Assembly (NCBI GenBank): GCA_951406725.2
Contig: OX597825.1
Location: forward strand, 1,674,001-1,738,000
DNA from: Octopus vulgaris
Lineage: Eukaryota
DNA length: 64,000 nucleotides
Direction of reading: 5' to 3'
Every line of letters starts with the position of its first letter. Within the stretch, counting starts at the first letter, position 1. The translations under genes were made by a program, and so were the position numbers. The notes under the pieces were generated by a model. That model was not told the DNA's origin and did not search any database. It worked only from the letters and a program-made list of their open reading frames with translations. Shown one piece after another: positions 10,974 through 59,590 of the stretch.

Positions 10974-11010
10974 TCTTAACGTTTCGGCAGTTTCTCCTTC
11001 ATCAGAAAAG
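10974..11010 (-). ncRNA. Minimal type I hammerhead ribozyme motif (canonical core)
   Basis: Minus strand reads CTTTT-CTGATGA-A-GGAG AAA CTGCC-GAAAC-GTT-AAGAC: CUGAUGA and GAAA core, stem II, palindromic AACGTT at stem III, and stem I UUUU/AAGA. Confidence 0.6.
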
Positions 11011-11358: not shown

Positions 11359-11575
11359 AATAAAAATTTACAGAAAAGCAAAAAACGAAGGCAGGTGTAT
11401 AAACAACAAGCAGGTGTAATTAGTTTGACGCTCAGGAAAGTGAGAAAGCTTTTTACGCTTCGAGCCTACGCTCTTCAACAGAAAGGAACACGAGGAAATA
11501 TATAGAGAGAAGATTAAAAAATCAAAAAAACAGAGAGGGAATAACAGCAGTTTTGGAGTTAGCGGTCAATCATAT
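11359..11575 (-). mobile_element. Short non-coding HHR-bearing element (Penelope-terminus or retrozyme-like), same family as 59432-59590
   Basis: Homologous to 59432-59590 (ATTAGTTTRACGCTCRGGAA...CCTACGCTCTTC). Bounded by TA/TG tracts. Confidence 0.55.
11449..11485 (-). ncRNA. Hammerhead-like motif with variant core (CUGUUGA; GAAG)
   Basis: Minus strand: CTTT-CTGTTGA-A-GAGC GTAG GCTC-GAAGC-GTA-AAAAG. Perfect 4-bp stem II, two core deviations. Confidence 0.45.
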
Positions 11576-18440: not shown

Positions 18441-18451
18441 TTTGACATTTT

Positions 18452-18820
18452 AGGCGCAGGAGTGGTTGTGTGGTAAGAAGCTTACTTCTCAACAACATGG
18501 TTCCGGGTTCAGTCCCACCGGGTAGTACCTTGGGCAAGTGTCTTCTACTATGGCATCGGACCGACCAAAGCCTTGTGAGTGAATTTGGCAGACGGAAACT
18601 GAAAGAAACCCGTCGTATATATATATATTTGTATGTGCCTGTGTTTGTACACCGCCATCACTTGAGAACCGATGTTGGTATGTTTACGTCTCCGTAACTT
18701 AGCGGTTCGGCAAAAGAGACCGATAGAATAAGTGCTAAGTTTACAAAGAATAAGTTCTGGAGTCGATTTGTTCGACTAAAGGCGGTGCTCCAATCAAAGG
18801 ATTGAAAGAAGTAAAAGAAT

Positions 18821-18882: not shown

Positions 18883-19035
18883 ATATCTATATATATATAT
18901 ATATTATATAAGTTAAATAATAAGGGTAGAAATTGATATTAATCACTTAAAACCAGTGGCTTAGCATATTTAAAAAATCCGAAGATTAAAAATATGTGAC
19001 ATATGTAACATAATTTTGTATATATATATATATAT

Positions 19036-19407
19036 AGGCGCAGGAGTGGCTGTGTGGTAAGTAGCTTGCTAACCAACCACACGGTTGCGGGTTCAGTCCC
19101 ACTGCGTGGCATCTTGGGCAAGTGTCTTCTGCTATAGCCTCGGGCCGACCAATGCCTTGTGAGTGGATTTGGTAGACGGAAACTGAAAGAAGCCTGTCGT
19201 ATATATGTATATATATATGTATGCGTGTGTTTGTGTGTCTGTGTTTGTCCCCCTAGCATTGCTTGACAACCGATGCTGGTGTATTTAGGTCCCCGTCACT
19301 TAGCGGTTCGGCAAAAAGAGACCGATAGAATAAGTACTAAAAGGTGGTGCTCCAGCATGGCCGCAGTCAAGTGACTGAAACAAGTGAAAGAGAGAAAGAG
19401 TAAAGAG

Positions 19408-19459: not shown

Positions 19460-20467
19460 ATAATATAATATAAATATATTATATAAATACACACACAGAC
19501 ACACACACTATATATATATATATATATATGGAAGGAAAGATTATATGGGCGTGAATGCAGAGTTTGCATATTTATGGAGAGCGAGAAACACATGCATAAA
19601 TACAAGTATAACTTCGTGTATGTGTGTGAGGAGAGAGTGAGTGAGGGAAAGAGAGAGAGAGAGAGAGGGTGTATTCAATATCACTGACGATGACCATGAA
19701 TTCTAACGCTACTCATTATTGGTTATTTGGTTACACTAGTAACGATCTACTATCCAACATGGAATCCATCAATCTCTTACTTCTACAAACATACGCATAT
19801 TGCGAACGTAGAAATATGATTTTTTAAAATTTACTAACTTCTTAATTCTTATGATTATTTGTATTTGAGAAATTTGAATTAATTTCATTATTTTGTATAA
19901 ACTTTTTGTAATATGAAAAAAAAGGTAGACTTATTACCTCTGTCAATATCTAATTTTATTCAAATTGACAAAAGTATGTACAAGAATAGCAATCGTATGA
20001 CATATGACGCAGTCGTTATTATTAAATGAACTACCGTTTTACAAGTTTCAGTATTTCGGGATATATTACAAATGAAAATACACTGGAAGCAACTTACACC
20101 AAACTCCCGCATCTCTTTAGTCCGTCTTATTATTGAGTTCGAGATGTGATATTAATTGCAGTTATCGTGACCCCACGATAACATCAAATAAACTGCAGTC
20201 CGTGATAGTTCTTCATTGGTCAAAATCCATGTTACCGAAATACTTTTGTTTCAGCGACGATGTAAATTGAAGATGTTAATCAAACTCTATGTCTAAAACT
20301 TCAAAAACAACTTGTATTGATATTTTTATGTTATTAATATTTAAACGGAAAATATAATGATACTTCTGAATTTCAACTCCCACTCGTAGCTGTGTGTGGT
20401 TAAAAATCATTTACTTCAGGAAAAAAAATGCTTTCCTAAAGAAATCTCAATATTTGTACTGTATATA

Positions 20468-20698
20468 GGCGGCGAGCTGGCAGAAACGTTATCACACCGG
20501 GCGAAATACTTAGCGGTATTTCGTCTGCCGTTACGTTCTGAGTTCAAATTCCGCCGAGGTCGACTTTGCCTTTCATCCTTTCGGTGTCGATAAATTAAGT
20601 ACCAGTTATGCCCTGGGGTCGATGTAATCGACTTAATCCCTTTGTCTGTCCTTGTTTGTCCCTTCTACGTTTAGCCCTTTGTGGGCAATAAAGAAATA
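20468..20698 (+). mobile_element. SINE family B, full length
   Basis: GGCGGCGAGCTGGCAGAA head, B-box-like GAGTTCAAATTCC, GCCTTTCATCCTTTCGGTGTCGATAAATTAAGTACCAG central domain (Meta/MESC-like as I recall it), AAAGAAATA tail. Nearly identical to 41952. Confidence 0.9.
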
Positions 20699-29782: not shown

Positions 29783-30282
29783 TATATATATATACATACG
29801 ACCATACGATGTGCGTCGCACATTGCGCACGCGCGTCTGCGTGTGAATGACTGACATCTTATCATTTATTTCCTTAGAGGCGGCTTTGCTGCAGTTACCA
29901 AAGAATGCCTAACCCGAGATGGTTTGGCCTTCTGTTCGTGCGCTTTTGCCAAAGAAAGAAACCCTTACACTCTGCTGCAATATGTTTTGTGCTTTTTGTG
30001 TACATCATTAGTTCGAGTTTCTCTTTGTACACGGAATACCATTCACCCGATCGACTACTGGTATGAAGCAGTTGCCATTATGAATAGTGATGAATGGGTA
30101 CTAATTAATTGCTGAGGCGAAGCATGACTTAACTAGAACAAATCAGAGTCATTGATAAGGAAATTATAACCAAATACCAAAAACCAGCATTAGTATAGTC
30201 ATATAGTTAAGAAAGTTTCTTCGAAACCATGTGCCTACGGTTTCGATATCACACTGCAGCGACCTCTTGAACTTTGGTACTC

Positions 30283-30321
<39 letters not shown>

Positions 30322-30326
<5 letters not shown>

Positions 30327-30555
30327 AAAAACGGTAAGACAACCAAAGGATTAAAGAGACCTCGATATTATGTAAATAGAGGAATTTATCTGTAAATGTA
30401 ATATGTGACAATTATTCGGTAGCCATGATAAAACTCTGTGTTTCGGATGCCGATGGCTGGATAACTGAAGAGATGGCGGCGTGAATTTCCACCTCGGCAT
30501 CCGAAACTCGGAGTTTTATCATGGCTACCGAAGAATTGTCACATATTACACATAT

Positions 30556-30560
<5 letters not shown>
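30322..30560. mobile_element. HHR-bearing fold-back element inserted in (TA)n
   Basis: 57-bp inverted arms 30397-30453 and 30494-30550 with 3 mismatches; long (TA)n on both sides. Confidence 0.7.
30460..30520 (+). ncRNA. Type I hammerhead ribozyme motif with long stem II
   Basis: GATAA-CTGAAGA-GATG...GTG AATTTC CAC...CATC-C-GAAAC-TCGGA-GTT-TTATC. Stem I GATAA/TTATC is perfect, the core is intact, stem III is ACT/AGT. Predicted cut after 30515. Confidence 0.65.
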
Positions 30561-30615
<55 letters not shown>

Positions 30616-31339
30616 TATATATATACATACATACATCCACTCGGCAGAGCGCAGTAAATACTATCAAGTAGGTTGATGCAGTACCTCACCATATGTATGT
30701 GTTTGCGTGTGTGTATAAATAGATCGATAGATGGATACATGATATTATTTGTCGGTGTAAACATAGCGGCGAGTTGCGTTCTCTGAAGTCAAAAGTTACT
30801 TAATAATTATTAAGTACACTCAATCGCGCGCGGGCATACGCACACAGCCACGCACACAGCCACTCACACAGCCACGCACACACCCACGCACACACACACA
30901 CACACGATATGTTTGCTAATCTTCAAATGTCAGCCTCATTCAAACGTTTCGGTTTTCAGCTTAACCCTACATCTTAAGATCTTCATAGAAAACATTTATC
31001 ACGATGAGGTATTGTCACAAATAATAACAAAATAAAGAATAATAAATTAATAGAACCCTAAAGGGTAATATTCCGAGTATAATTAATAGATATTTGATAG
31101 CGATGTCAGGGACACTCGTGCTATCAACGATGTTATATTATAATTCACATATAATAATGACGTTGCCAATTCTGATATCGAAGAGAAAAAATTAAACGGA
31201 ATATAAAATAAGATAACTTAATTGTTAGTGATAAATTATATATGATATAATTGAAATAATAAATGACATATAGCTTAATTTTAAGCAATTAACACTCACA
31301 GACTTGATTGATGAGTGCAATAAATGACGAACAGATCAT

Positions 31340-31539: not shown

Positions 31540-31734
31540 TATATATATATGTATATATATATGTGTGTGCGTAGAGGGTATGAATGTACATTTTGTACCT
31601 ACGCGCGTACATACATGTGTGTATGTTGAATATCTATACGCATCATGCACACACACACACACGCATGTATAATTATGCTTAATTTCATTCATTAGATCTT
31701 AACAGTTGATTACTTTCTTAAATATAAATACAGT

Positions 31735-31980: not shown

Positions 31981-32884
31981 GAGCAAATTATAATGTTGCT
32001 AATCTTCTGATACCACCACTACTGCTACTACTGCTAATTAACGAAACGCATATATACATTTTTTGGGTTTTGGTTTTCATTTTAGTTAATAATCATAATG
32101 ATGACACCGAAGAATTTATTTTCCATTTTTAATTTATGTTTACAAATATTTAATACTCAAAGGATTTGGAGAGGACATATTAAAAAGTGATAAAGATGTA
32201 AATATATCCTTTTCGAAATATGTTGTCTCTTCTGCTTCGCTGCACGGAAATTTGGCAGAAAACATACTGAAACAAAATGATTTCCAGCGCATTTCTTTCA
32301 GAGCCAACTGATGAATGGTATTAGAGAGCAGGAGTCCAGTAGGTCTGACATCCCGAAAGCCTAATCACTGAGGAGAGAAACAGATTCAAAGATATAGGAA
32401 AAACGTTGCTGTCAAAATACTGGAAGCGCGGTGAAGGGTAATCGTTGAGAGGGTTATGTAGATTGCCCTTCTTGAGAAACCCAAGAGTGTTTCCAAACAT
32501 CAAGATATATCCAGGGTGAGAGAGAGAAAGTGAGAGAGAAAGAAAGAAAGAGAAAGAAAGAGAGAGGAAGAGGGAGCGAGAGAAAGAAAGAGAGTAAGTG
32601 GGAGAGAGAGACTGAAAAAATTAACGTGGATAATTATATATGCATGTGTGTGTGTGTGTGTGTTTGTGAGTGTGTGTGTGTGTGTATGATGCGTATAAAT
32701 ATTCAACATACACACATGTATGTACGCGCGTAGGTACAAATGTACATTCATACCCCCTACGCACACACATATAATTATTAAGTAACTCTTGAGAATATAG
32801 TACAAGTCCCACATTTTTTGTTTGTTTGCCGAGGTAATACCTACAGTAAAGAATAATTCATTGCGACAACCAGCCAGTTAGGAA

Positions 32885-35534: not shown

Positions 35535-35875
35535 TTGAATAAATTGGAGTCAACAAGAGTCAACAAGAAGGAGTGCAGAGGAACATTTATTTGTAATCTC
35601 TACAATTCTTTCCACGCAACGCAGTTCTCCAGGTTTTTTTTAGGTATTTGGTTATGCAACCGCTTCCCTGCGACTACGCTGCGTGGAAACAACTGTAGTG
35701 GCTACAAATAAATGTTCCTCTCTACTCCTTCCTGTTGACTCCAACTTATTCAATTATCCGTTCACACACTACAGAAGCCCCAACACAAATCTGGCAGTAA
35801 CGTATAATACTTCTGCTCAATAGCACCAAGAGAAATTTGAACGTGGACGAACTGATAACAGAATATAACCTAACT
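35535..35875. mobile_element. Second fold-back element with degenerate HHR-like motif, between microsatellites
   Basis: Inverted arms 35535-35625 and 35673-35753 (about 80 bp; the left arm has a 10-nt duplication AGTCAACAAG). The right arm starts with TACG CTG CGTG-GAAAC-AACT-GTA. Confidence 0.6.
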
Positions 35876-40837: not shown

Positions 40838-41951
40838 CTATCTGTGTGTTTGTGTGTGTGTGTACGTCACGTCTTCTGTCAGTCTACCTGTCGTGTCTTT
40901 TCTGGTAGAAGAAATCCATGTTGTCGCTATTGTAGCTAAGAATAGACTACACTTCTAAGAAATGCATGAAGTCTGTTGGGGTCATAGCTTGTAAAGGAGT
41001 GTGGTTCATTTTAAATGTATTAGTATTTTTATCAACTACTAAATCTAGATTAGAGGACTATGTCTGTTTAGAATAGAGGGCAGGAGTGAGTTGACAGCTC
41101 ATAGCTAGGTATGGTCATAAATATTGTCAAGATTTTAGGAGTATTATTAAAGTAACTGTCTATAAAGGAGGCTGGGTAGGGGAAGACACCGAATCAAGAT
41201 GTTAAAGGGGCAAAACGCTAATAAAACCTATGGTGTTAAGACAGAGGAAATTTTATCATTGTGTACTGTGGGTGATTGTTTATAAACAATATTGTTATGT
41301 TGTATAAAGATAATTTTAAGATTATCAAAAATGATATAATCAAAATAGATAAAATGTGTATATATTTATTAATTTTCAACATTAAAAAGGGAAGATTACA
41401 TAGAATCAGTTTGATATTCATGTACTTAATTATTTACTTATTAGGTGGTTTCTATAAAAACTGCTCTGGGAATTTACTTATGGAATACTGGAAAGATAAA
41501 CATGCTATCCATATATTAATTTTAAGCTAAGAATCAGAAAAAAAATGAAAATTGTGTAATGATAAACACACATATTTATCTATGTGCACACGCAAACGTA
41601 CACAAATATTTATACGTTACTATGGATATATTATAATCAACTGGCATAGACTTAAGTAACTAGAAAGTATATAGATCTCTGTTTAAGAACAGTAACAACT
41701 TATAAGAGATAAGAGGTTAATAGGTAAGGATATCAAAATAAGAAAACAAGATAATACGAATTTATTGAGAATAGTACGAAATATATATAGCTTACATTTA
41801 AAGAGACCGAGTATTAAGGTTTTAATATAGGGAAGAGATAAAGATAATCCCAAAGAGGAAGCAACAGGTATGGGAGAGGCTGAAAGAAAGAAAGAAGAAA
41901 GCTAGCGGTGTGAAAGTTATTGCTATGACGTTGTGTGGTACGTTAATTGAA

Positions 41952-42240
41952 GGCGGCGAGCTGGCAGAAAGGTTAGCACGCCGGGCGAAATACTTAGCGG
42001 TATTTCGTCTGCCGCTACGTTCTGAGTTCAAATTCCGCCGAGGTCGACTTTGCCTTTCATCCTTTCGGGGTCGATTAAATAAGTACCAGTTACGCACTGG
42101 GGTCGATATAATCGACTTAATCCGTTTGTCTGTCCTTGTTTGTCCCCTTTGTATGTAGTCCCTTGTGGGTAGTAAAGAAATAGGTATTTCGTTTGTCGTT
42201 ACGTTCTGAGTTCAAATTCCGCCGAGATAGTAAAGAAATA
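41952..42240 (+). mobile_element. Young SINE family B insertion with extra partial copy and 15-bp target-site duplication
   Basis: Full copy 41952-42182 plus partial copy 42183-42240. GGTACGTTAATTGAA occurs at 41937-41951 and 42241-42255. Confidence 0.92.
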
Positions 42241-43246: not shown

Positions 43247-44080
43247 TGAAGGATGGAAGGAATGAAGGAAGAAGTGAAGGAAGGAAGGAAGGAATGAGTG
43301 AAGGAAGGAAGGAAGGAAGAAGTGAAGGAACGAATGAGTGAAGGAAGGAAGAAGTGAAGGAAGGAAGGAAGGAAGGAAGAAGTGAAGGAAGGAAGGAATG
43401 AGTGAAGGAAGGAAGGAAGGAAAGAAGGAAGGAAGGAAGGAAGGAAGGAATGAGTGAAGGAAGGAAGGAAGGAAAAAGTGAAGGAAGGAAGAAGTGAAGG
43501 AAGGAAGAAGTGAAGGAAGGAAGGAATGAGTGAAGGAAGGAAGGAAGGAAAGAAGAAAGGAAGGAAAGAAGGAAGGAAGGAACGAATGAGTGAAGGAAGG
43601 AAGGAAGGAAGAAGTGAAGGAAGGAAGGAAGAAATGAGTGAAGGAAGGAAGGAAGAAGTGAAGGAAGGAAGGAAGAAGTGAAGGAAGGAAGGAATGAGTG
43701 AAGGAAGGAAGGAAGGAAGGAATGAGTGAAGGAAGGAAGGAAGGAAGGAAGGAATGAGTGAAGGAATGAGTGAAGGAAGGAAGGAAGGAATGAGTGAAGG
43801 AAGGAAGGAAGGAATGAAGGAAGGAATGAGTGAAGGAATGAGTGAAGGAAGGAAGGAAGGAATGAGTGAAGGAAGGAAGGAAGGAAGGAAGGAATGAGTG
43901 AAGGAATGAGTGAAGGAAGGAAGGAAGGAAGGAAGGAAGGAAGGAAGGAAGGAAGGAATGAGTGAAGGAATGAGTGAAGGAAGGAAGGAAGGAAGGAAGG
44001 AAGGAAGGAAGGAAGGAATGAGTGAAGGAAGGAAGGAAGGAATGAGTGAAAGAATGAGTGAAGGAATGAAAGAAGGAAGT
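43247..44080. repeat. Long (GGAA)n array interrupted by TGAGT/GAAGT units
   Basis: Direct reading; about 830 nt, almost no C on the plus strand. Confidence 0.95.
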
Positions 44081-59431: not shown

Positions 59432-59590
59432 ATAGGGAGAATTCACAAAAGAAAACAAAATGGTGGTGTAGACAACTAACAAATGTATTAGTTTAACGCT
59501 CGGGAAGTGAAAGAGTCTTTAACGTTTCGAACCTACGCTCTTCCACAGAAAGGAGCACAAAAAGAAACAAGGAGAGAAAATAAAGAGTGT
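59432..59590 (-). mobile_element. Short HHR-bearing element, same family as 11359-11575
   Basis: Homology to 11359-11575; flanked by (TA)n and (TG)n. Confidence 0.6.
59517..59552 (-). ncRNA. Minimal hammerhead motif with variant core (CUGUGGA)
   Basis: Minus strand: CTTT-CTGTGGA-A-GAGC GTAG GTTC-GAAAC-GTT-AAAG. Stem I CTTT/AAAG is perfect; palindromic AACGTT. Confidence 0.55.

Follow-up and report, generated by a model that had tools for sequence, protein, structure and literature searches.

Insertions of Penelope-like elements (PLEs) have been described as carrying an inverted, 5'-truncated copy together with a tail on one side only (Fig. 2 legend of PMC8557442). Craig et al. 2021 tabulated the Hydra clade (PMC8557442 File S2) and annotated an inverted 5'-truncated copy for Penelope-13_HM; the same table lists Hydra-1_Obim, a family of octopus source with a (TA)n target. 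Pairs of PLE hammerhead motifs on opposite strands, 100-700 bp apart, were already noted in passages of PMC4209133. Moreover, the parts of PMC11167929 that deal with the anole Penelope protein describe that it cuts and extends both strands in vitro, and that reverse transcription starts at two adjacent internal sites which bound the tail.

Here we analysed a fold-back with a hammerhead motif in a window of Octopus vulgaris DNA (contig OX597825.1); the window is the whole stretch of 64,000 nucleotides under analysis and consists of non-coding, microsatellite-rich animal DNA. The insert consists of two 5'-truncated 3' ends of a very high-copy hammerhead repeat, joined head to head with a 4-nt overlap inside (TA)n, and is most likely a dead Penelope-like stub, probably of the Hydra clade or of a non-coding derivative moved by one. 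The locus is most likely an ordinary fold-back stub, which is a published insertion form of Penelope-like elements. An inverted, 5'-truncated duplication of Penelope-like type had been proposed in the first-pass annotation, and the two 3' ends standing head to head, the one-sided tail and the (TA)n surroundings agree with this proposal. Neither this repeat family nor a PLE ribozyme gated by a hairpin was found described in the literature; related motifs may be listed in supplementary file 1 of PMC4209133.

Anatomy of the insert

The insert spans 30323-30558 (236 bp). Read from left to right between the two (TA)n tracts, it begins with an antisense 3' end of 131 bp that carries the tail, passes through the 4-nt seam and closes with a sense 3' end of 109 bp that has none. 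This extent had been overlooked in the first reading, as had the tail of the left copy and the 4-nt overlap. The following features were assigned (positions in the window):

30285-30322, no strand: (TA)n microsatellite to the left of the insertion site
30323-30453, minus strand: left copy, a 5'-truncated antisense 3' end reaching from the long terminus to the 3' strand of stem II
30323-30386, minus strand: tail of about 65 nt, present on one side only and bounded by the long and the short terminus
30397-30453, plus strand: left hairpin arm
30450-30453, no strand: seam, the 4-nt overlap CCGA common to both copies
30450-30558, plus strand: right copy, a 5'-truncated sense 3' end that ends at the short terminus of the family
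30454-30527, plus strand: type I hammerhead motif, predicted to be cut after 30515; stem II is long, stem III palindromic, and stem I contains an internal loop
30494-30550, plus strand: right hairpin arm
30559-30633, no strand: (TA)n microsatellite to the right of the insertion site

The parent family was followed in contigs of four public DNA runs with four organism labels (A, B, C and E), which were compared with 30150-30540 at 80% likeness. Contigs of the left flank stop at 30269-30276 in all four runs. As (TA)n lies on both sides of the insert, a target duplication is not readable within the repeat. The short terminus is marked by 50, 54 and 49 contigs in the runs X1, X3 and X6, respectively, which start at 30387 and are preceded by (TA)n. 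Its mirror image is found in the right copy, since 30387-30390 corresponds to 30557-30560, which is exactly the point where the right copy and (TA)n meet. For the long terminus, family depth continues to 30332 and the family extends to about 30323, so that the two termini are about 65 nt apart. On the sense side, family contigs match the right copy from 30450 onwards; loose ends before this position numbered 40 in X3 and 25 in X6, and two listed contig records start at 30450. An overlap of at least four letters is expected at 2.2% of random joints (null chance 0.022). Within 30323-30353, 21-50 contigs per run diverge to the left of 30353 into a related but different tail end. By this divergence the family comprises at least two tail subfamilies.

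Other repeats were seen in the window as well. About 1 kb to the right of the insert there is an inverted repeat of 77 bp (31570-31646 and 32686-32761, 96% identical, 1,040 bp apart), which is either MITE-like or another inverted insertion. A decayed palindrome of 185 bp with a self-complementarity of 71% is located at 35557-35741. Furthermore, dispersed repeats of 81-91% identity and a 208-copy GAAG array were found at 20467-20698 and 41951-42182, at 18451-18738 and 19035-19340, and at 43248-44079.

The hammerhead motif and the hairpin

The sense copy contains all core bases of CUGANGA, GAAA and NUH in type I order, namely CUGAAGA at 30465-30471, GAAA at 30503-30506 and GUU at 30513-30515 of the plus strand, with the strand order of the whole motif being that of an ordinary type I hammerhead. 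GUU is listed among the active NUH sites in PMC3138052. Stem I is formed by 30460-30464 and 30516-30520 and is extended by a distal helix of 30454-30458 with 30523-30527. Stem II comprises 30472-30502 with one G-G mismatch and one bulged C, and stem III (30506-30514) is palindromic with a 1-nt centre. A complete hammerhead had earlier been placed at 30460-30520; the core is indeed complete, and the distal helix makes the true extent slightly larger. The inverted copy had been reported to break off inside stem II, and we located the break in the 3' strand of this stem. The left copy thus carries the 3' half of the hammerhead only, with a stem III mismatch at 30439, and the minus strand of the insert has no complete hammerhead. 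The mismatch in stem II (30476/30497) seems to be kept with other letters in another subfamily, as judged by eye from the loose-end consensus at 30449, and may be a structural feature of the family.

In a hammerhead descriptor search 30454-30527 was one of two matches in the window, with no match in any of ten shuffled windows. Rfam gave no hammerhead match at the gathering score or up to E = 10 (0 of 31 rows), and a core-pattern scan of metagenomes returned 0 matches. Elsewhere in the window, a short core of the minimal type lies on the minus strand at 10975-11005 in a decayed repeat of another family. Two repeat copies with 76% identity (11397-11514 and 59466-59581) have a minus-strand motif that resembles a hammerhead, with U in both at A6, a position that is normally fixed. 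A core-like word at 32308 failed the descriptor.

Folding of the sense copy alone predicted pair probabilities of 0.89 and 0.96 for helices I and II. A stable helix III is absent in the monomer because of the 1-nt centre; in the predicted homodimer two molecules build it together, and the double-hammerhead fold of this dimer is 8.9 kcal/mol better than two monomers. A second intact copy in cis was not found, as the locus has one complete motif and no other family copy was present in the window. These models suggest that 30454-30527 is a hammerhead of the dimer type, and its cleavage is a prediction.

Direct comparison of the arms confirmed the 57-bp fold-back that had been described: the two arms are reverse complements with mismatches at 3 of 57 positions (30414/30533, 30437/30510 and 30439/30508) and enclose a spacer of 40 nt. 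The hairpin at 30397-30540 has a folding energy of -82.8 kcal/mol compared with -34.2 +/- 3.8 kcal/mol for 200 dinucleotide shuffles (z = -12.8). If transcribed, a duplex of 57 bp is a plausible substrate of ADAR or Dicer.

The first-pass annotation went further and suggested that the left arm sequesters the ribozyme and that a read-through transcript has two mutually exclusive folds, either an active ribozyme or a long double strand for Dicer or ADAR; taken as a model, this would be a regulatory two-state RNA. Sequestration is borne out in silico, with a predicted pairing probability of 0.0 for stems I and II when the left arm is present. It is also true that both folds can be drawn, that each excludes the other and that the sense copy has kept its core bases. 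However, the folding results do not support them as alternatives in a working sense. The cost of the hammerhead fold above the ensemble is 54 kcal/mol with the left arm and 8 kcal/mol without it, an additional 46 kcal/mol in a model that does not score the catalytic core. Moreover, the hairpin is the minimum-energy fold of nascent transcripts as soon as they reach 30505, when the cut site at 30515 is yet to be made, and therefore wins co-transcriptionally, while stems I and II are freed only if the RNA starts at 30447 or later. Neither folds of similar energy nor a kinetic access to the active fold were seen at the locus. The dimer-type motif lacks a partner in cis, and PMC4209133 gives in vitro results in which a minimal PLE hammerhead did not cleave as a single motif. 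Of the arm mismatches, two are transversions and the third is a CpG variant common in the family; they are not an editing footprint, nor was such a footprint found at the differences between locus and family majority (30439, 30458 and 30484). A regulatory switch is accordingly highly improbable; the models rather predict that in plus-strand read-through RNA the hairpin locks the ribozyme permanently.

The parent family and the origin of the joint

Relative to the unique left flank, peak summed contig depth over the element was 24,000- to 234,000-fold in all four runs, a ratio that is not a copy number. The parent repeat is very abundant in all four runs. Ordinary copies do not end at 30449 but enter the antisense hammerhead, as seen from 64, 37, 41 and 44 loose ends in the four runs, and depth collapses at the seam in each run, in X1 to 886 at 30452 compared with 118,000 at 30439 and 213,000 at 30458. 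Therefore, the family monomer is collinear and the seam at 30450-30453 is not a family trait. All 12 common variants (at least 10%) within 30454-30527 are unpaired, lie in loops or keep the pair, and the core is untouched (P = 0.0007 for this compatibility versus random transitions, with subfamilies that are not independent). Since the variants spare the hammerhead pairs, the family conserves the hammerhead fold, and the locus copy has the hammerhead core of the family.

At least 16 other head-to-head joints were detected at scattered places (11 skip rows and 5 further rows listed), a count which excludes 4 rows on the opposite strand and 2 rows of another geometry. They are mostly single contigs with a short side of 22-50 letters at 80% likeness, and 11 of the 16 come from one run alone. 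The joint from 30399 to 30505 occurs in three of the four runs (organisms A, B and C), in two of them near flank depth, and is probably one older shared locus elsewhere. The antisense piece of 4 of the 16 listed joints consists of the tail alone, its end lying at the short terminus (post hoc, P about 0.004). We also considered the front edge of the ribozyme as the general turning point of fold-backs. This idea fits 30450, but was rejected as the sense starts of the 16 listed joints range from about 30435 to 30506.

The likely course of the insertion would begin with a GIY-YIG endonuclease cutting the (TA)n target on both strands. One target 3' end would then prime reverse transcription at the long terminus and give a cDNA of 131 nt, and the other would prime at the short terminus and give a cDNA of about 109 nt. 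The 3' ends of both cDNAs could anneal via CCGA/TCGG before repair fills in the remainder, and the hairpin would be a by-product of the head-to-head geometry. The tail is found on the left arm only and the sequence of the 40-nt spacer on the right copy only. As each arm has sequence that is missing from the other, two separately primed cDNAs are favoured over a simple snap-back. Such a course agrees with the in vitro action of the anole Penelope protein on both strands and its two adjacent start sites (PMC11167929). Similar steps were described for L1 twin and dual priming, in which two target ends prime separately and an inverted junction results; in the passages of PMC2837659 on twin priming, however, the L1 pieces do not overlap and have a poly(A) end, whereas our locus has an element overlap of about 66 nt and two fixed internal starts.

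The closest competitor of two separately primed cDNAs is one long cDNA which folds back, primes itself via the 4-nt match and later loses the tail from one arm. Self-priming is favoured for head-to-head junctions and was proposed for Penelope inversions in Adineta in the relevant part of PMC3846280. In addition, the overlap closes the 40-nt loop exactly as a snap-back would, although the four letters are equally compatible with the annealing of two cDNAs. A single cDNA fold-back cannot yield the arrangement of tail and spacer by itself because a later trimming step is needed: the would-be template arm, which has the spacer, lacks the tail that is present on the copied arm. Moreover, the tail-only inverted pieces follow the non-overlapping pattern known from twin priming (PMC2837659, in part). 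We therefore regard self-priming as unlikely. Less probable by far is that the joint is an assembly or library artefact. Among the 32 contig pieces listed, no near-identical one spans the seam, as would be expected for an artefact; this also counts against our preferred reading. On the other hand, a chimeric fold-back read gives identical arms, whereas those of the locus differ at 3 of 57 positions. Their different outer ends match two real family termini, their meeting point is an overlap templated by the family, and several of the runs have contigs with similar joints. Given the differences between the arms and the two genuine family termini at which they end, such an error is extremely improbable.

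It could also be argued that the fold-back itself is mobile, as a MITE-like unit or as passenger RNA, and was copied with its seam to many places. Two X3 contigs cross the seam region at depths far above the flank (6.5): 30387-30513 with 19 differences, no gap and a depth of 98, and 30422-30539 with 21 differences, 1 gap and a depth of 255. Since a collinear copy would show 28 mismatches in 44 positions there, both are true fold-backs of like geometry. Nevertheless, they are merely about 82-85% alike, an equal summed length suffices for a gapless alignment of any fold-back, and the collapse of depth at the seam in all four runs is at odds with a copied unit. The inverted repeats do not lie at the termini, and the remaining listed joints are different, so that terminal inverted repeats and an internal structure fixed across copies, which characterise MITEs, were not found. 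A mobile fold-back is thus very unlikely. We assign an equally small chance to the more far-reaching idea that Penelope-like enzymes copy hairpin-locked ribozyme cassettes with the 30450-30453 seam as whole units, and that their read-through double strands silence or edit the parent family. If it were true, this cassette subfamily would be a self-made off switch of a retroelement.

Taken by itself, the locus matters little: it is predicted to be dead debris of a retroelement in a form already published, and its value is that of one data point on the integration of Penelope-like elements. The tail on one arm, the seam of 4 nt and the tail-only inversions together fit priming from both cut ends at two fixed RNA sites, and a family of this size could discriminate between twin priming on one RNA, dual priming on two RNAs and self-priming.

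Comparison with Penelope-like elements

In 145 of the non-repetitive open frames of the window, Pfam detected no reverse transcriptase or GIY-YIG domain, and a low-complexity repeat was the only entry above the cut-off. Likewise, no host exon or reverse transcriptase fragment was found in these frames, through which short exons would escape. As no reverse transcriptase or GIY-YIG domain is linked to the family at the locus, the assignment to element and clade rests on non-coding traits. With the insertion units of EN+ PLEs, as portrayed in parts of PMC8557442 and PMC3846280, the locus shares an inverted 5'-truncated copy joined at the 5' end, a tail at one end only, a microsatellite target, a hammerhead near the 3' end and microhomology at the junction. 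It differs in that it has neither an open reading frame nor a tandem pLTR and that its copies are merely 109-131 bp long. Two further differences count against a PLE: the tail given in the text of these papers is 30-40 bp compared with about 65 nt here, and the PLE consensus has an extra base after CUGANGA, which 30454-30527 lacks while having a bulged C on the 3' side instead.

The motif also resembles the minimal dimeric PLE hammerheads covered in sections of PMC4209133, which are of type I with a long helix II, a small palindromic helix III and a predicted action as dimers. In contrast to these, it has no unpaired base between A9 and G10.1 and possesses a second stem I helix beyond the internal loop. 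Animal non-LTR retrozymes, according to 10.64898/2026.07.22.740005, are likewise non-coding with a type I hammerhead and a proposed origin from PLE pLTRs; however, their tandem units with two complete motifs are absent at the locus. It is possible that the parent family is a derivative of this kind, non-coding and retrozyme-like.

The locus also resembles the Hydra clade. This clade is defined in the text of PMC8557442 by protein motifs (RWK, DKT, no CCHH, CxCX5C linker) that are absent at the locus. A hammerhead of canonical order near the 3' end and (TA)n targeting are present, and both are typical of the clade and not unique to it. In our own by-eye comparison with the table in PMC8557442 File S2, no row equals the family of the locus, whose stem II is longer than that of Hydra-clade hammerheads and has an internal mismatch and a bulge on the 3' side. 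Nevertheless, a 4-bp palindromic stem III with a 1-nt centre occurs in 16 of the 25 families, in two of which all nine letters are identical to the locus, and a U is found at the cut site in 10 of 25. For Hydra-1_Obim, the first 11 core letters are the same. The distance from the motif row to the end of the consensus is 6-23 nt in 10 of the 25 families and 61-129 nt in 11, and the corresponding distances at the locus are 17-20 and 84 nt. Together with the stem III type, this match between two end-distance classes and the two termini points to a Hydra-clade PLE as the likely mover of the repeat, as far as sequence comparison can tell. Hydra-1_Obim, Hydra-2_Amil, Penelope-13_HM and Penelope-16_HM are examples of described elements that share with our locus the (TA)n target, the type of stem III, the U at the cut site and the two classes of end position.
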